Position numbers and translations under genes: made by a program. Positions 1 to 51,680 of a stretch of 64,000 bases of DNA are shown here, piece by piece. Source of the stretch: an uncultured Candidatus Saccharibacteria bacterium (GTDB taxonomy: Bacteria > Patescibacteriota > Minisyncoccia > Phycocordibacterales > Zambryskibacteraceae); contig CAYGIH010000002.1 in NCBI GenBank assembly GCA_964349945.1, positions 125,492 through 189,491 on the forward strand, written 5' to 3'. The stretch's first letter is position 1. Each line of letters opens with the position of its first letter. The notes under the pieces were generated by a model. It made no database searches, was not told the origin of the DNA, and saw only the letters and a program-made list of their open reading frames with translations.

Positions 1-1494
1 CATAATATTATTGCCTTTAAAAAAACTGCAGAATCTTTGGAAGTGGCAATGCTTGATACAGAAGACCTTACAGCTATAGATTTTGTGAAGAAAAAAGTAG
101 GTTTAAGAATTTTACCAAGGCTTACAGACAACGAGTCTATGAAGTGGGCCTTACTTTCATATCAAAAAAGTCTAAAAGCTGAATTCGGAGATATCATTCA
201 AAAAGAAGTCGGGTCTATTAAAGCTATAAATGACAATCCAGATGGTGAGACGGAGATTGAGGGCGATTTGAAAAAACTTGCAGAAGATGTGCCTGTAGTC
301 AGAATAGTAGATACTCTTCTTAAGCACGCCATTATTCAAGATGCATCGGATATTCACATTGAACCAGAAGAAGGTCAGGTGTTGGTTAGGTACAGAATTG
401 ATGGTCTACTCCATGATGCGATGGTTTTACCGAAAACTACTGCCGCAGGAATCACTGCTAGGATTAAAGTTTTGTCTAATTTAAAACTAGACGAAAAGAG
501 AGTGCCTCAAGATGGTCGCTTTAAAATTGATATGAATGGAGAAAAGGTTTCTTTTAGAGTTTCTACACTCCCTACTTATTATGGAGAGAAAACAGTAATG
601 CGTTTGCTCAGAGAAAATGTTTCAGGGTTCACATTAGAAGGACTTGGCTTTCATGGGTGGGGATTATCAGAAATACACAAAGCCATAAAATATACTACCG
701 GCATGATTCTTACCACTGGCCCAACTGGTTCAGGTAAAACTACTACTCTTTATACAATTTTGGACATTGTGAACACTCCAGACGTGAATATTTCCACCAT
801 TGAGGATCCGATTGAATATCAAATGAAAAGAATAAATCAAACTCAAGTTAGACCTGATATTGGTTTCACTTTTGCTTCGGGGCTACGAACTCTCGTAAGA
901 CAGGATCCAGATATCATTATGGTGGGGGAGATCAGAGACAATGAAACGGCTGCCCTTTCAGTTAATGCAGCCCTTACTGGTCACTTGGTTCTTTCTACTT
1001 TGCACACCAACTCTGCTGCAGGTGCAATCCCGAGACTTCTTGATATGAAAGTTGAACCATTTTTGCTGGTTTCTACAGTAAATATTGTTGTAGCTCAAAG
1101 ACTTATCAGAAAATTATCTGCTAATAAAGAAAAATATTTTTTGAATAAAGAGGAAATAAAATCTTTAAGTACAATCGTAGATCTCGATAGGATGCTCGAT
1201 TTGTTAAAGGCAGAAAATTTAATTGACAAGAAGGCTACTTGGGATAAGGTGCCGTTTTATAAACCAAAGCCCAGTGTCGACAGCGTGGATGGTTATCAAA
1301 GCCGTATAGGGATACACGAAGTTTTGAAAATGACTGATACAATTAGAAATTTAGTTATGAAAGGAGCTACTGCTCATGAGATAGAAGAACAAGCTAAAAA
1401 AGATGGCATGATGACTATGATAGAAGACGGGATATACAAGGCTGTTCAAGGAGTGACAACTATCGAAGAAGTTCTTAGAGTAATTTCAGAATAA
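1..1494 (+). CDS. pilB: Type IV pilus assembly ATPase PilB/GspE, 5'-truncated at window edge
   Basis: Walker A GPTGSGKTTT, Asp box, His box (LSTLHTNSAAG). The reading frame is open from nt 1 upstream of the M at 37, so the N-terminus lies outside the window. Confidence 0.85.
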   Translation, partial: HNIIAFKKTAESLEVAMLDTEDLTAIDFVKKKVGLRILPRLTDNESMKWALLSYQKSLKAEFGDIIQKEVGSIKAINDNPDGETEIEGDLKKLAEDVPVVRIVDTLLKHAIIQDASDIHIEPEEGQVLVRYRIDGLLHDAMVLPKTTAAGITARIKVLSNLKLDEKRVPQDGRFKIDMNGEKVSFRVSTLPTYYGEKTVMRLLRENVSGFTLEGLGFHGWGLSEIHKAIKYTTGMILTTGPTGSGKTTTLYTILDIVNTPDVNISTIEDPIEYQMKRINQTQVRPDIGFTFASGLRTLVRQDPDIIMVGEIRDNETAALSVNAALTGHLVLSTLHTNSAAGAIPRLLDMKVEPFLLVSTVNIVVAQRLIRKLSANKEKYFLNKEEIKSLSTIVDLDRMLDLLKAENLIDKKATWDKVPFYKPKPSVDSVDGYQSRIGIHEVLKMTDTIRNLVMKGATAHEIEEQAKKDGMMTMIEDGIYKAVQGVTTIEEVLRVISE

Positions 1495-3789: not shown

Positions 3790-4964
3790 TCAACAAAAAA
3801 ACAAATGGATACTTTCTGATTCAAGTGCTTGTTTTTGGAGCAGTGGCAACGATAGTTATTTCCGGTTTAATTATGTTTGCAATTACAAATACTAAACTCG
3901 GAAGGAGAGCCGTCTTATCTGAACAAGCCTTCCAGATAGCTGAGGCAGGTGTTGAGTACTACAGATGGCATTTATCGCATGCTCCTAGTGATTTTAAAGA
4001 TGGAACAAATGATGCGGGACCGTATGTGAAAAATTTTTATGATAAGAATGACAATTTGTTAGGCACTTATACACTGACTATCACTCCATCTGCAAATGGT
4101 AGCTCAGTCACTATAAAATCTGTCGGGACATCGAGCGTAGATCCAAGTGTAAAGAGAACTGTTGTTACAAAAGTAACCACCGGTACAGGGGTAACATTTC
4201 ACTATGGAGTACAATCAGGAGTAGGGGGATTTGTTATGGGTGGAAACTCAGTAGTTAATGGAAATGTTTATTCAAACGGAGATATTACTGGAGGTAATGG
4301 TTCCTCTATAACTGGTAGTGCCAATGCAGTTGGGACAATTTCAAACGTTTCTGTGGGAACGAGTCAGACAGGTGTTTTACCTCAAGATATGCCTGTGACA
4401 CAAGCTGAAATAGATGGATGGAAATTAGATGCTGCTACCACAACTTTTGTGGGTAATAAAACAATAAATGGTTCGAATAATAATCTTGGGCCAATGAAAA
4501 TTCAAGGTAACTTAATCCTAAGCAATAATGCTACTTTAACTATTACTGGCACCTTGTGGGTAACAGGAACTATTACTTTAGGAAATAACGCTACAATCAA
4601 TCTTTCTTCAAACTATGGTGCCACTGGTGGAATAGTTATCGCTGATGGTGATATTTCTCTTGGTAATGATGTTAATCTAAGCGGTTCGGGTACAACAGGA
4701 AGTTATCTAATGTTTATATCTCTTTCAACCTCCTCTTTGGCCATAGATATGGGTAATGGCAATGCTGCTACGGTTATGCTTTATGCCCCAAATGGAACAA
4801 TAAATGTGAAAAATAACGCTAGCCTGAGAGCTTTATCGGCTAAAACTATTAATCTGGGGAACAATGTAGAATTAAATTATGTTACAGGGATTATCGATAC
4901 CACCTTCAGCAGTGGACCTTCAGGGGGGTGGAGTATTGATGGTTGGCAAGAAGTAAGTAACTAA
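3786..4964 (+). CDS. PilX-like pilus-associated protein with C-terminal beta-helix-like repeats
   Basis: N-terminal hydrophobic anchor, then repeated G-N-N-A-T-[LI]-T/N-[LI]-S/T-G units (TLTITGTLWVTGTITLGNNATINLSSN). Confidence 0.45.
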   Translation: MINKKTNGYFLIQVLVFGAVATIVISGLIMFAITNTKLGRRAVLSEQAFQIAEAGVEYYRWHLSHAPSDFKDGTNDAGPYVKNFYDKNDNLLGTYTLTITPSANGSSVTIKSVGTSSVDPSVKRTVVTKVTTGTGVTFHYGVQSGVGGFVMGGNSVVNGNVYSNGDITGGNGSSITGSANAVGTISNVSVGTSQTGVLPQDMPVTQAEIDGWKLDAATTTFVGNKTINGSNNNLGPMKIQGNLILSNNATLTITGTLWVTGTITLGNNATINLSSNYGATGGIVIADGDISLGNDVNLSGSGTTGSYLMFISLSTSSLAIDMGNGNAATVMLYAPNGTINVKNNASLRALSAKTINLGNNVELNYVTGIIDTTFSSGPSGGWSIDGWQEVSN

Positions 4965-44511: not shown

Positions 44512-44905
44512 TGGTGGAGATGCCGGGAATCGAACCCGGGTGCAAAGAGAGATTCAAGTGAAGTCTACGCGAGGTAGGATGCTTCATTTAGTTCGAACAG
44601 AAAGATACAAAACAAACGAAAGCTCTTTCAATTCTATTCCCTTAATCTGAGAGTCAGTCGAGAAACACAAACTCCGAGTCTCTAGTTATTACGCACGCTT
44701 ATGAGTCAGAGGCACCCATCATAAGGCACGGTCGCACGCGAACTGTTAAGCTCGAGCGTAAGCGAACTGGAAATCATTCACACCGAAGTATGGTGATATC
44801 CTTGCAACAGTTTTGTTTGCAATTGTTTTTGAAGCGGATTAAAGAGTCACTTCGGCTCTCTCGCGCATCACTCGAATGAATCTCCTTGTCTAGGCCGATC
44901 ATCCC
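44512..44905 (-). ncRNA. ssrA: tmRNA (SsrA)
   Basis: 3' end ...CCGGGTTCGATTCCCGGCATCTCCACCA (T-arm plus acceptor plus CCA). 5' GGGGATG pairs with the 3' acceptor and gives a G3:U70 wobble. Internal tag ORF ends ...FAYARA-TAA. Adjacent to smpB. Confidence 0.8.
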
Positions 44906-45004
44906 CCTAAAACATTTTTGTATACAAAAATGTTCGGGCGATCGATTTGTAAACAAATCGATTTAGCCATAAAGCATCCTTGTATAAATGTTCGGGCGAA
45001 CAAA

Positions 45005-45274
45005 TTAATGGCTCGCCCTACTTTGTTTGTATTTATCTAGTATTTTCTTCTTTTCTCTCGCGCCCCACAAACTTTTTAGAAATCTTTCTCTATTGAACGC
45101 TTCAGTCTTATCTTCAAATTTTTCACTATGGATAAGACTGAGCGGTCTGCGAGATTTAGTTGCTTGCACGGCTCCATTGTTGTGTCGCACTAATCTTTTC
45201 TCAAGATTAGTGGTGCAACCAACATAAAGTTTGTGGTCTTTAGAACTTAGAAGGATATAAACAAAGTAGGGCAT
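45005..45274 (-). CDS. GIY-YIG nuclease superfamily protein (YhbQ-like)
   Basis: FVYILLSSKDHKLYVGCTTNLEKRLVRHN GIY-YIG motif. 89 aa. Confidence 0.75.
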   Translation of the reverse strand: MPYFVYILLSSKDHKLYVGCTTNLEKRLVRHNNGAVQATKSRRPLSLIHSEKFEDKTEAFNRERFLKSLWGAREKKKILDKYKQSRASH

Positions 45275-45284
45275 ACCATACTTA

Positions 45285-45722
45285 TTATTTCAATTTACGA
45301 TTCAGGTCTCTCTCGACATCGCGTTTCTTGATGGATTCGCGTTTGTCGAATTTTTTCTTGCCTCGCGCAATGGCGAGGTCAAGCTTTAGAAACCTACCTT
45401 TATTATACACCGAAAGAGGCACGATTGTCAAGCCTTTAGTCCCTTCAGCTTTTTCTAATTCACCAAGCTCTGCCTTGGTTAGAAGTATTTTCCTTGCCCT
45501 AGTTGATTCATAGTCCGCAGGGGCGTTTTTTGGCTGATAGGCTGGGATGTCAGCATTGAGGAGGAAGGCTTCTTTACCTCGGATGGTCACATAAGCCCCA
45601 GAGAGGGAAATGTGCCCAGCCCGAACAGACTTCACTTCTTGGCCAGTTAGCTCGAGCCCAGCCGTGAACTTCTCAAGGATTTCATAATCAAATGTCACTT
45701 TTCTGTTCTGTGCGAGTGCCAT
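45285..45722 (-). CDS. smpB: SsrA-binding protein SmpB
   Basis: Conserved SmpB core (GLELTGQEVKS, SGAYV). Confidence 0.9.
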   Translation of the reverse strand: MALAQNRKVTFDYEILEKFTAGLELTGQEVKSVRAGHISLSGAYVTIRGKEAFLLNADIPAYQPKNAPADYESTRARKILLTKAELGELEKAEGTKGLTIVPLSVYNKGRFLKLDLAIARGKKKFDKRESIKKRDVERDLNRKLK

Positions 45723-49066: not shown

Positions 49067-49419
49067 ACATCCTCCGTGGAAATAAGTCAGGGAACTGGTG
49101 AATCAGTGAGATTCCAGCGAGTCTAATGTGAATATTAGCACATAATATGTAAAAAGTCAAGATAAATCCACTTGTCGTCACATGCTTTTAACGTGTCGTC
49201 ACAAGTATTTTTCTGCTGAAAAATCTCGCGACCCCGACTCAGCCCGTCGGCTTCTGTCTCGGACAAGTAAAAAACCGTGTCCCACAAGCTTTTTTACTTG
49301 TCCGCCCTCTTGGAATCTTCACACCTAGGAAACCCACGGTTTTCCCAATCCTTCCTTCACGGGAGACCAGATGTTCTCCCGACCCCTCTCCGTTCGAATC
49401 CAAGAGGATTCACTTCGTG

Positions 49420-49493
49420 TCCGCCCTCTTGGATTCGAACCAAGGACCCCAGAGGTATAAGCTCTGTGCTCTAACCAACTGAGCTAAGGGCGG
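49420..49493 (-). tRNA. tRNA-Ile (anticodon UAU)
   Basis: Cloverleaf: acceptor CCGCCCT/AGGGCGG, D GCTC/GAGC, anticodon stem CAGAG/CTCTG with loop CTTATAC, T arm CTTGG-TTCGAAT-CCAAG. No encoded CCA. Confidence 0.7.
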
Positions 49494-49523
49494 AGTAGGA
49501 ATACTATATAGCAAAATAGACTC

Positions 49524-51680
49524 TTATTCAAAATGCACTTTTTTAATCTGACTTTCTAGATAATTTTTTAGGTTTTTATGATCGTTGAGGGTTGGATCTT
49601 CTTCTATTATTTTTGTAGCTTCAAGGCGGGCGGCCTCAACCATTTTGATATTTTTGATAGCTTCCATCGCAAGGTCACTCACTCCCCATTGTTTACCTCC
49701 ATAGAGTTCGCCTGAACCTCGTTGCTTGAGGTCAAACTCTGCGAGTTCAAAGCCATTTTTGGCAGTCTTGAGGGCATTTAGCCTTTCAATAGTTTTATCT
49801 GTTTTAGAGTCAGCGAAGACAAAGCAGTATGGTTGATGTGTGCCTCGTAGTACTCGTCCACGAAGTTGGTGTAGTTGGGCGAGGCCAAACCGCTCTGCGC
49901 CTTCGATGATGATGAGTGAGGCATTGACTACGTTCACTCCTATTTCTACAACCGATGTGGCGACCAAAATATCTAATTTTTTATCTTTGAACTCTAGCAT
50001 TATTTTTTCTTTCTCCGTTGGCTTCATTTTGGAATGCAAAATACCGATGTTGTATTCAGGGAAGATATTTCTTTTTAATCTTTTAGCCTCTTCTTTAACT
50101 GATTTAACCAATATGGCCGTTTCTTTCTCCGGATCTGGTTCATCTATGCGTGGACAAATTACATAAAGTTGTCTGCCTGCTTGCATCTCCTCACGTATCT
50201 TTTCATAAGTATTTTCTCTCTTATCTTTAGTGACTATTTCTGTGATAATTTGTTTGCGTCCTTCGGGCATTTGATCAAGGAGGGAGAGATCAAGGTCGCC
50301 GTAGAAGGTGAGGGCAAGGGTGCGAGGAATAGGTGTGGCTGTCATAGAGAGCAAATGTGGGACTATGCCTTCTTTACTTATTAATTTTTGCCTTTGAGCT
50401 GTACCGAATCGGTGTTGTTCATCAATGATGGCAAGGGCTAGATGTTTAAACTTCACACTTTTTTGAATAAGAGCATGTGTGCCTATAAGTATGGCTATTT
50501 CACCATTCGCCACCCACTTGAGGAGTTGTGGGCGAGAGATGTTTGTCCAACCTTCTGGGTTGAGTTTAGAAGGAAATTTTCTACAGCCTGTTCCAGTGAT
50601 GAGAGCAATGTTTATAGGTAGGTGTTTGAAATATTTTATAAATGATTCAAAGTGTTGCTGAGCGAGGATTTCTGTGGGGACCATATAAGCGGTTTGAAGG
50701 GTGCCGAAACTCTGGCCCTTAGGTTTGGAAGTAGTGACAGCATAAGCAGCGGCTGCGGCCACAGCAGTTTTACCTGAACCCACATCTCCTTCAAGGAGTC
50801 TACTCATAGGATATCCTCGTCGAAAGTCGTCCAAAATATGTTGAATAGTTTTATATTGTGCCTCGGTCGCTTTGAAGGGAAATCTTTCTATAAACTTTTC
50901 CATCTCATCAAAATTTTTGTCTATCACAAATGATTTTTGCTCTTTGAATTCTTGTTTTATTTTTTGTTTTTCTAATTGAATGAAAAATATTTCTTCAAAA
51001 GCAAACCTTTTTCGCGCAGATTCAGCATCAGCCAAACTGTGTGGAGTATGAATCCATACTAGAGCGGTGCGGAGAGTGGGGAGATTATATTTATTAATAA
51101 TTTCCTCTGGGATTGGGTCAACGAGAGTATCTAAAGCGCCAGATGTGAAAATATTTTGAATTTTATGATAAATCCAATTAGAAGTGACGCCTCGTGTCTC
51201 TGGATAAACTGGATACAAAGTATGCTTTTCATTTTTAGTGCCAAACAATGAATCCCCAATATCAATAGGTAGTTTGGGTATAGTTTCAATTTTTGGATTA
51301 GAAAAATATAATTCACCTTTGCGCTCACTAATTTTCCCCTCTACACGAACAAACGAATCTTCGGTGAGCATTTTGGCGAGGTATGCTTGGTGGAACCAAA
51401 CTATTTTTATTCTCCCAGTCTCGTCTGTTACCCAAGCTTCAGACATGGGGATTCTAGTCCTAAATCCTTTGGAAGTTTTTAGTCCACTGATTTGTCCAAA
51501 TACTACAGCTTCAGTGCCTTTGGTTAAGGTGTTCACATATGTCACTTTGGCTGTATCTCCGTATCTGGTAGGAAAGTAGTAGAGTAAATCCTCCACGGTT
51601 AATACGCCTATTTTCTTTAGAGCATTGGCCTGTACGGGTAAGATACGAAATACAGATGAGAGGTTATCTCTAATATTCAT
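49524..51680 (-). CDS. recG: ATP-dependent DNA helicase RecG
   Basis: Wedge domain plus helicase motifs (GDVGSGKT, DEQHRFG). 718 aa. Confidence 0.9.
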   Translation of the reverse strand: MNIRDNLSSVFRILPVQANALKKIGVLTVEDLLYYFPTRYGDTAKVTYVNTLTKGTEAVVFGQISGLKTSKGFRTRIPMSEAWVTDETGRIKIVWFHQAYLAKMLTEDSFVRVEGKISERKGELYFSNPKIETIPKLPIDIGDSLFGTKNEKHTLYPVYPETRGVTSNWIYHKIQNIFTSGALDTLVDPIPEEIINKYNLPTLRTALVWIHTPHSLADAESARKRFAFEEIFFIQLEKQKIKQEFKEQKSFVIDKNFDEMEKFIERFPFKATEAQYKTIQHILDDFRRGYPMSRLLEGDVGSGKTAVAAAAAYAVTTSKPKGQSFGTLQTAYMVPTEILAQQHFESFIKYFKHLPINIALITGTGCRKFPSKLNPEGWTNISRPQLLKWVANGEIAILIGTHALIQKSVKFKHLALAIIDEQHRFGTAQRQKLISKEGIVPHLLSMTATPIPRTLALTFYGDLDLSLLDQMPEGRKQIITEIVTKDKRENTYEKIREEMQAGRQLYVICPRIDEPDPEKETAILVKSVKEEAKRLKRNIFPEYNIGILHSKMKPTEKEKIMLEFKDKKLDILVATSVVEIGVNVVNASLIIIEGAERFGLAQLHQLRGRVLRGTHQPYCFVFADSKTDKTIERLNALKTAKNGFELAEFDLKQRGSGELYGGKQWGVSDLAMEAIKNIKMVEAARLEATKIIEEDPTLNDHKNLKNYLESQIKKVHFE

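Follow-up and report, generated by a model that had tools for sequence, protein, structure and literature searches.

What does it mean when a transfer RNA (tRNA) gene is followed by a direct and by an inverted copy of its own 3′ end? The question is raised by the gene for tRNA-Ile(UAU) on the minus strand of a 64-kb stretch of contig CAYGIH010000002.1, from an uncultured Candidatus Saccharibacteria bacterium; this whole stretch is called the window below. A first-pass annotation of the window had noticed both copies and had read them as attL/attR, the scar left by a decayed or excised element. Our analysis agrees with this reading insofar as DNA was inserted, the segment from the T-loop to the 3′ end was duplicated and the distal copy is the displaced original end, but not in the lost island. 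Comparison with related loci shows that the inserted block is an intact member of a widespread element family of Patescibacteria, whose members combine hairpins P2 and P4, in some cases also P3, with conserved purine-rich junctions and are closed by stem P1. We moderately favor the view that this element is the gene of a small structured non-coding RNA that rides on tRNA transcription units and relocates between tRNA genes.

We first describe the tRNA gene, which is sound. ARAGORN calls tRNA-Ile(UAU), as in the original annotation, and Rfam matches a full-length tRNA; it is not a pseudogene. The cloverleaf is regular, with acceptor strands CCGCCCU/AGGGCGG and the discriminator A73 at 49420; CCA is not encoded. 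The UAU anticodon had been flagged as uncommon for a bacterial tRNA-Ile. It is standard in this lineage, because an exact search found the same tRNA-Ile 3′ end in at least 119 stretches of Patescibacteria species genomes, with the UAU anticodon arm in nearly all of the rows printed. The labels of metagenome-assembled genomes (MAGs) among the matches listed (Paceibacterota, Nomurabacteria, Parcubacteria, Kaiserbacteria and similar) all belong to Patescibacteria. The 3′ part of the tRNA is thus identical to that of many relatives, among which a recG–tRNA-Ile synteny is common.

Both repeats are real, with slightly corrected borders. The direct copy, TGTCCGCCCTCTTGGA on the plus strand, is an exact 16-nt match between 49299-49314 (first placed one position off, at 49298-49313) and 49418-49433, and reaches 18 of 19 positions when extended to 49317/49436. 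Its exact part spans tRNA position 60 to 2 nt beyond the 3′ end, that is, the last 14 nt and two flanking bases. The inverted copy, initially given as 15 bp at 49394-49408, comprises 16 nt at 49392-49407 that are 100% complementary to 49425-49440 (tRNA positions 53-68), with 17 nt between the arms. It can also pair with the direct copy (49306-49317 with 49396-49407, 12 nt, one mismatch). No further match to either 16-mer is present within the 64-kb window with up to three mismatches allowed; by arithmetic, the chance expectation for one given 16-mer on both strands of 64 kb is ∼3e-5. We refer to the repeat within the tRNA as copy A, to the inverted one as copy B and to the distal direct one as copy C.

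The tRNA-Ile loci of four relatives carry no insert and reveal which copy is ancestral (L061, L037, L076 and L077; L-numbers are labels of comparison loci or contigs). The 3′ end of their tRNA-Ile and its downstream flank align with copy C, with the hairpin at 49260-49304 that copy C overlaps and with ∼100 nt beyond, whereas the sequence following copy A is unrelated and has no counterpart in these loci. The comparison therefore bears out the duplicated tRNA end of the first reading, and shows that a 119-bp block, consisting of 103 new nucleotides and the 16-nt repeat, was inserted into tRNA-Ile(UAU) at about T-loop position 59/60. The block supplied fresh tRNA positions 60-73, and the original 3′ end was pushed downstream together with its hairpin and flank. 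Because the block brought this copy with it, the tRNA stays intact. In agreement with the earlier annotation, no integrase is present in the window around the site; neither between nor beside the repeats did we find integrase or island genes, and only short mechanical open reading frames overlap the 103 nt. A pattern for the exact empty-site junction gave no match in metagenome contigs.

One apparent empty site was discarded. L001/L003 (ENA ERZ27247817 k141_504357) shares 2412 nt with the window at 99.96%, has an identical RecG and diverges 6 nt after the tRNA, as the empty-site allele of a near-identical strain would. It turned out to be a chimera, fused within the tRNA during assembly: the 5′ acceptor strand CCGCCCU is opposed by a mismatched AGGACGG, the downstream part equals L014 of another MAG, and the second recG is only 62% identical. 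Two related organisms were joined at about 2330-2412 in tRNA-Ile. The contigs L012 and L014 of MAG CAZADR01 end at the same tRNA-Ile, and two Logan contigs from different runs both stop at window position 49227.

We then searched for the inserted sequence elsewhere, using the pattern AGGAAGG-N(2-32)-GGAAAACCGTGGGTTTCC. The element core was found in at least 120 metagenome contigs of uncultured Patescibacteria and in two to three species genomes, and the pattern had no match in 2.9 million viral contigs. All instance counts that follow are among the matches listed. Nearly half of the instances (61 of 124) are located 50-110 nt downstream of a tRNA gene and on its strand, a further 11 lie just upstream of a same-strand tRNA, and 3 are convergent with a tRNA, so that 72 of the 75 adjacent cases share the strand. 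The upstream tRNAs represent 17 specificities (Ile, Phe, Arg, Met, Glu, Gly, Lys, Cys, Thr, His, Asp, Gln, Tyr, Ser, Leu, Ala and Val); with the same core behind all of them, no attachment sequence is tied to a single tRNA species. Homologues were found behind tRNA-Ile in L118 and, in opposite orientation, next to tRNA-Ile in L079, while L006 shows merely a short partial resemblance that ends with the contig. Nine instances sit between rpsI and grpE and have non-tRNA flanks. The 103 nt of the window are thus no decayed or excised remnant but a complete, conserved and covarying unit.

The flanks of the element follow a common geometry. On the 3′ side, a direct repeat of the host tRNA extends from about position 60 through the 3′ end and beyond (median exact length 12 nt, range 5 to 24), in some loci through the terminator. 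The distance from the core to the start of the repeat is 13 nt in most loci, 21 nt where AGCGAAGCG is inserted and 9-12 nt in a minority; with such variable repeats, the target-site duplication has no fixed length. On the 5′ side, the flank corresponds to the reverse complement of three parts of the host tRNA, namely the T-loop, the T-stem and the 3′ strand of the acceptor (median exact length 10 nt, maximum 24). Since this geometry recurs in the tRNA-linked loci, copies A, B and C of the window are one instance of a general rule, and the inverted copy is no accident but the regular 5′ flank of the element. In tRNA-linked members, the two strands of P1 are thus the inverted and the direct copy of the host's T-loop, T-stem and acceptor 3′ strand.

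Some loci contain further features near the element. Group I introns lie ∼100-150 nt upstream of it and on the same strand at L185:4559-4805 and L169:5867-6108 (Rfam, 78 and 72 bits), and the two instances concerned, which were scored as having no tRNA, may follow an intron-containing tRNA missed by ARAGORN. Small genes of the GIY-YIG nuclease family, encoding ∼85 amino acids, recur near tRNA genes and near the element in seven loci (genes of this kind are present at window 45005-45274 on the minus strand and, among others, in L126, L193, L201 and L230), and a LAGLIDADG-like protein of ∼220 amino acids adjoins the element or its tRNA in six, including L118 and L195; both may be free-standing nucleases relevant to mobility. 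The 4.1-kb metagenome contig L142 carries identical inverted copies of the element at 62-117 (+) and 3976-4031 (−), which may reflect a palindromic error of the assembly or a genuine inverted duplication.

The order of parts is the same in all instances: the 5′ flank comes first, then a purine junction with GGGGUC at its end, P2, GUGRAGGAAGG, an optional P3, P4, a short junction and the 3′ flank, which pairs with the 5′ flank to form P1 and closes a three-way junction. Within this order, AGGAAGG and the 18-nt center of P4 were fixed by the search pattern and are hence present in every instance found with it. The size of the element ranges from ∼100 to 130 nt. With ∼105 bases, the copy of the window is an intact member, matched by the covariance model at 49302-49407 with 88.8 bits over its full length (model positions 1-107). 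Its parts are listed in Table 1. The invariant hairpin and the junction have the look of a site to which a conserved partner binds.

Table 1. Features of the tRNA-Ile(UAU) locus, in window coordinates
Feature	Position	Strand	Remarks
σ70-like promoter TTGAAT-17-TATAGT	49503-49531	(-)	Directly upstream of the tRNA; consensus match only
tRNA-Ile(UAU), intact, anticodon TAT	49420-49493	(-)	ARAGORN 49419-49493; Rfam tRNA 69.4 bits at 49420-49493, full length
Copy A: tRNA positions 60-73 plus 2 nt (UCCAAGAGGGCGGACA)	49418-49433	(-)	New 3′ end that keeps the tRNA whole
P0 mini-hairpin CACGAAGUG, C-GAA-G triloop	49411-49419	(-)	Same motif between tRNA and element in ∼30 other loci
Copy B: CCUCUUGGAUUCGAAC, antisense of tRNA positions 53-68; 5′ strand of closing stem P1	49392-49407	(-)	
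Junction J1/2: GGAGAGGGGUC	49381-49391	(-)	GGGGUC nearly invariant
Hairpin P2: GGGAGAAC-AUCU-GGUCUCCC	49361-49380	(-)	Covariation (double changes) in all 7 of 7 pairs, 96% paired
Junction J2/4: GUGAAGGAAGGAU	49348-49360	(-)	Site of optional hairpin P3 in other members
Hairpin P4: U-G-GGAAAACCGUGGGUUUCC-U-A	49326-49347	(-)	Pair outside the 18-nt center covaries
J4/1 and degenerate T-loop: GGUGUGAAGAU	49315-49325	(-)	Corresponds to GUGAGAU or GUUCGAU in other members
Copy C: ancestral tRNA 3′ end, displaced by 119 bp; 3′ strand of P1	49299-49314	(-)	Alignment with relatives
Conserved hairpin starting in the last nucleotides of copy C	49260-49304	(-)	Directly follows the tRNA in relatives; stem covaries

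The stems evolve as expected for an RNA. We examined covariation in an alignment of 106 sequences against 500 shuffles and slid controls. In the element stems, 89% of the cells are paired, compared with 78% in the shuffles and 25-66% in the slid controls; double changes occupy 281 cells versus 114 in the shuffles and affect 15 of the 21 pairs, and none of the 500 shuffles reached the observed values. Several pair types occur in P2 and at the base of P4; at the latter position, 60 sequences have GC, 24 have UA and 20 have CG. Folded alone, the element adopts P1 (B:C), P2 and P4 at −39 kcal/mol. Two other interpretations of the core were rejected. In some members a Shine-Dalgarno-like GGAGG is followed by UUG or AUG and a frame of 7-9 codons, but members with P3 do not keep this frame, and the position covaries as part of a base pair, which speaks against a coding function. 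A rod-like pairing of the P2 strands with those of P4 is contradicted by the covariation of P2 while P4 is invariant.

The element matches no family of Rfam 15, tmRNA, ribozymes and riboswitches included: between 49150 and 49520, besides the tRNA and its antisense, all hits at E values up to 10 stay at or below 15 bits with E above 3, and 20 other loci gave no match for the element at E up to 1. Its invariant sequence is absent from the searchable literature; what we found there on RNAs and tRNA insertions of Patescibacteria are just group I introns (position 35/36), which are unrelated.

There appears to be about one copy of the element per genome, because the covariance model finds only two copies in 746 kb, comprising the window and the loci of 99 relatives: one in the window and one in the 682 kb of relatives, at L079. 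The many dispersed copies typical of a miniature inverted-repeat transposable element (MITE) were thus not found in these 746 kb. Across the element loci we found no conserved neighboring protein gene, and no recurrent recombinase or integrase among the neighbors of the 124 instances.

Our preference for a small RNA gene is based on four observations: a promoter-like site precedes the tRNA, the element is on the strand of the tRNA in nearly all adjacent cases, space for a separate element promoter is lacking, and G·U pairs outnumber A·C mismatches in the stems (21 versus 11). The putative promoter at 49531-49503 is presumed to be the start of a joint tRNA-element transcription unit. Transcription would proceed from there through the tRNA and P0 into the element. 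The tRNA would fold first, copy B would then pair with copy C and thereby close the three-way junction, and the cut of tRNA 3′ processing would part the tRNA from the element RNA. By landing with a duplication of the tRNA end, the element would occupy a presumably essential tRNA gene without inactivating it, and the flanking tRNA sequence (the whole conserved tRNA on the left, at least 16 nt on the right) could provide homology arms for transfer between genomes. The ends of the element are T-loop-like inverted repeats (AUCGAAC ... GUUCGAU or GUGAGAU), which would fit a relocation from one tRNA gene to another through recombination within the universal T-loop sequence.

Several results weigh against this scenario, in which transcription and processing are inferred from sequence and the mechanism of relocation is conjecture. 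The hairpin between tRNA and element resembles a full intrinsic terminator in many loci; this would hinder co-transcription, and a separate promoter has no room. A comparison of strands for downstream terminators gave 46 sense versus 37 antisense of 119, and the bias toward G·U is merely 2:1. In the unconstrained fold predicted for the precursor (−87 kcal/mol), A is bound to B and C to the tRNA's 5′ strand, which would break the tRNA; the cloverleaf combined with P1 (B:C) reaches −67 kcal/mol. Moreover, in 58 of 61 loci the 5′ flank forms a stronger pairing with the upstream tRNA than with the 3′ flank (means −28 versus −20 kcal/mol), and where tRNA and 3′ flank differ, it agrees with the tRNA at 129 sites and with the 3′ flank at 2. 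Since the 5′ flank thus tracks the functional tRNA, P1 may not be the sole or main relevant pairing. In part, this bias results from a recurrent change of the 3′-side T-loop copy from GUUCGAU to GUGAGAU (32 of 123 instances), which gives tandem G·A pairs. Finally, no other assembly of this strain spans the locus: L001 is the chimera described above, and the Logan contigs stop at 49227 or within recG.

The same bias of the 5′ flank leads to an alternative that we consider possible, though rather unlikely: the element could represent a new class of tRNA-directed RNAs, in which a conserved scaffold, the three-way-junction core, carries a variable segment of 10-24 nt that is antisense to the T-loop, T-stem and acceptor 3′ strand of one tRNA. 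Because the segment follows the tRNA so closely, it may act on this tRNA or its gene, for example as a guide for the element's own insertion into the T-loop or as a regulator or quality-control partner, and would then be more than a strand of the closing stem.

A second alternative, to which we likewise give only a minor chance, retains mobility but not the RNA. The element would be a protein-less mobile DNA, similar to a MITE or folded into a single-strand hairpin, and a recombinase or nuclease of the host or of foreign origin would mobilize it in trans and recognize the conserved hairpins as DNA. Its terminal T-loop-like inverted repeats and flanking direct repeats, its different positions in different genomes and the inverted orientation of the L079 copy next to the same tRNA are as expected for such an element. 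C-GAA-G mini-hairpins, which are unusually stable as DNA, recur in P0, P3 and the P1 insert, and small GIY-YIG and LAGLIDADG-like genes accompany a few loci. However, it occurs about once per genome and not as a dispersed repeat, and direct repeats that vary from 6 to 24 or more nt and sometimes include a terminator do not suit a transposase with a fixed stagger. The strong co-orientation with the tRNA (72 versus 3) and the tolerance of G·U wobble pairs also argue against mobile DNA. The conserved purine junctions are unpaired, which is more typical of a functional RNA, and vertical inheritance is suggested by stable synteny classes, for example rpsI-element-grpE.

It is improbable, in our view, that the element is a diverged version of a housekeeping RNA already known, of about the same length and missed by the Rfam models in this phylum, above all the small signal recognition particle (SRP) RNA (4.5S RNA). 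A length of ∼100 nt with a variable closing stem and about one copy per genome would suit such an RNA, and the purine run GGAGGAAGG(CAGC) faintly resembles GGAAGGAAGCAGC of SRP domain IV. A canonical SRP RNA is found neither in the 64-kb window nor in 287 kb of element-bearing contigs, a weak argument with so little sequence; nor does the canonical motif occur in 1.59 Mb of fetched loci, which is uninformative. On the other hand, no match to SRP, 6S or RNase P RNA was obtained at E values up to 10 with permissive filters. The structure is a three-way junction with a variable P2 loop and not a rod with a GNRA tetraloop, rod-like pairing being contradicted by the P2 covariation mentioned above. 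The AGCA motif is invariant in SRP RNA, yet the window copy and other P3-less members are without it.

The scar of a decayed or deleted integrase-mediated island or prophage, of which ∼100 bp were left, is largely refuted, and we regard it as very unlikely. A block of identity that begins in the T-loop and runs to the tRNA 3′ end is the classic signature of T-loop-class tRNA-targeting tyrosine integrases. In addition, the distal copy is the ancestral end, and partial tRNA copies exist at other tRNA-Ile loci of the same phylum. But the 103-nt insert has full length relative to the family consensus (88.8 bits), and its stems covary like those of an RNA. The occurrence of the core behind 17 tRNA types excludes a single tRNA-specific phage attachment site (attP) or integrase. 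No integrase-like neighbor recurs in the locus clusters or lies in the window around the site, and the viral contigs contained no match.

Still less credit is due to the proposal that the repeats merely form the A:B stem of a cis-acting hairpin, through which the tRNA or the gene downstream would be terminated, attenuated or marked for processing. This stem is perfect (16 bp, about −32 kcal/mol), it dominates the predicted fold of the precursor, and copy B tracks copy A in evolution. The terminator hairpin offered by the first-pass annotation as an alternative fails, however: the A:B hairpin is followed by GGAGAGGGG and no U tract, and the scan called no minus-strand terminator between 49700 and 48900. 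Furthermore, such a hairpin explains neither the 70-nt conserved core between B and C nor the members without a nearby tRNA, and the downstream gene has its own predicted promoter, with different downstream genes at different loci. That the repeats arose by chance, or that the assembly erred at a conserved tRNA, can practically be dismissed: assemblies do break or mis-join here (the L001/L003 chimera; Logan contigs ending at 49227), but the same architecture recurs in more than 60 independent contigs from many projects, and exact 16-mers are far beyond chance.

We next compared the element with known systems. The kind of event is known, namely an insertion into a tRNA gene that regenerates its 3′ end. 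Integrative elements that target tRNA genes comprise islands and prophages with tyrosine integrases and T-loop crossover, and their integrase-less remnants include cis-mobilisable elements. Like them, the present element inserted in the T-loop, brought a replacement tRNA 3′ end, displaced the original one to form a direct repeat and left the tRNA functional. Unlike them, it inserted just 103 nt, lacks an integrase here and in related loci and uses 17 tRNA identities; it also has an extra inverted tRNA copy and RNA-like covariation, and is inherited in about one copy and partly in synteny. Family-2 casposons and CRISPR spacer integration (Cas1-type) provide a parallel in the target at the 3′ end of a tRNA gene and in a segment duplicated around an insert with terminal inverted repeats. 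They differ in that the element has no Cas1 gene, an insert of ∼100 nt with a conserved structured core and a duplication that is not fixed (6-24 or more nt versus 14-15 bp). With MITEs and other small repeats (REP/BIME, Correia, RPE) it shares its size, terminal inverted repeats, flanking direct repeats and lack of coding capacity, but not its about one copy per genome, the near-invariant core across divergent genomes or the strict association and co-orientation with tRNA genes.

Other parallels concern RNA. Several RNAs are released from tRNA-containing units by tRNA-processing enzymes: MALAT1-mascRNA, the tRNA-microRNA transcripts of gammaherpesviruses, plant tRNA-small nucleolar RNA transcripts, the 3′ external transcribed spacer of leuZ (3′ETS-leuZ) in E. 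coli and, through RNase P, pre-4.5S RNA. As in these cases, a small RNA would lie directly downstream of the tRNA on the same strand, without its own promoter and with a closing stem that copies the acceptor/T-stem helix. In contrast to them, the flanks of the element are literal copies of the host tRNA, one direct and one inverted, the gene has moved from one tRNA gene to another many times over, and its processing is putative. Position 59/60 is also where tRNA genes are interrupted by non-canonical introns in archaea or rearranged, as in the permuted tRNA genes of Cyanidioschyzon and the split tRNAs of Nanoarchaeum, the latter joined through complementary leaders. The T-loop position is the same here, and complementary sequences could join the tRNA body to the distal 3′ part, as in the lowest-energy fold of the precursor; but the tRNA gene is complete without splicing, and a use of the distal copy is only putative. 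The bulge-helix-bulge endonuclease is not known from bacteria. The passenger itself is new: with ∼100 nt, no protein gene, RNA-like features, many tRNA identities and an antisense tRNA copy, it matches nothing in Rfam 15 or the searchable literature.

If our interpretation is correct, a widespread, strongly conserved and as yet unnamed small RNA or element is added to the Patescibacteria, a huge uncultured group whose genomes are minimal, so that each conserved gene matters. The element illustrates how a gene-sized passenger without its own protein gene could occupy presumably essential tRNA genes harmlessly, by rebuilding the tRNA end and placing tRNA copies around itself. It also makes questions testable: how the inverted copy is made and matched, what binds the invariant hairpin and whether tRNA-processing enzymes mature the RNA. 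For annotation, duplicated tRNA ends in Patescibacteria need not mark islands.

Some further observations were made in the window and in the comparison loci. About 4.5 kb from the element, the window encodes an ordinary one-piece transfer-messenger RNA (tmRNA; tag ANKTVARISPYFGVNDFQFAYARA) beside smpB (44512-44906 and 45285-45722, both on the minus strand); between the conserved loops of the element and this tmRNA we found no notable complementarity. Nested tRNA genes are present at L084:3665-3886 (+) and in L028, L048, L051, L073, L088, L020 and L112, with related arrangements in L013 and L098. Here, a 5′ fragment of tRNA(UAU) (positions 1-36, ending in CTTAT) is followed by a spacer of ∼31 nt, a complete tRNA-Ile(UAU), a spacer of ∼40 nt (..ATTTGCA..GGTGCGAGCG.AGA..ATATG.AATAT) and the matching 3′ fragment from position 37 to the 3′ end, so that the anticodon loop of one copy is interrupted by an insert of ∼150 nt that includes a complete tRNA. 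The spacers can pair with each other (−25.8 kcal/mol in L084, tandem G·A included). The outer gene of L088 encodes a second UAU tRNA, whose acceptor is GGGCGUG.

Downstream of tRNA-Ile, a conserved stretch GTCCGAGnCGGAG...GGGGTCGCGAGATTTTTCAGCAGAAAAATACTTGTGACGAC is found in the window (49171-49203 and 49205-49260) and in L076, L077, L061 and L037; further sites are L083:5517-5565, L044:3248-3289, L066:6174-6215 and L054:5664-5706. The motif TGTGACGACA occurs twice in the window, 21 nt apart, directly upstream of the –35 box (49155-49160) of a membrane-protease-like gene (49066-48344), and was found at other places in relatives; it is probably the transcription-factor site of a small regulon. 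In addition, GGGGTCGCGAGA (49224-49235) resembles the element's GGGGTCGGGAGA (49375-49386).

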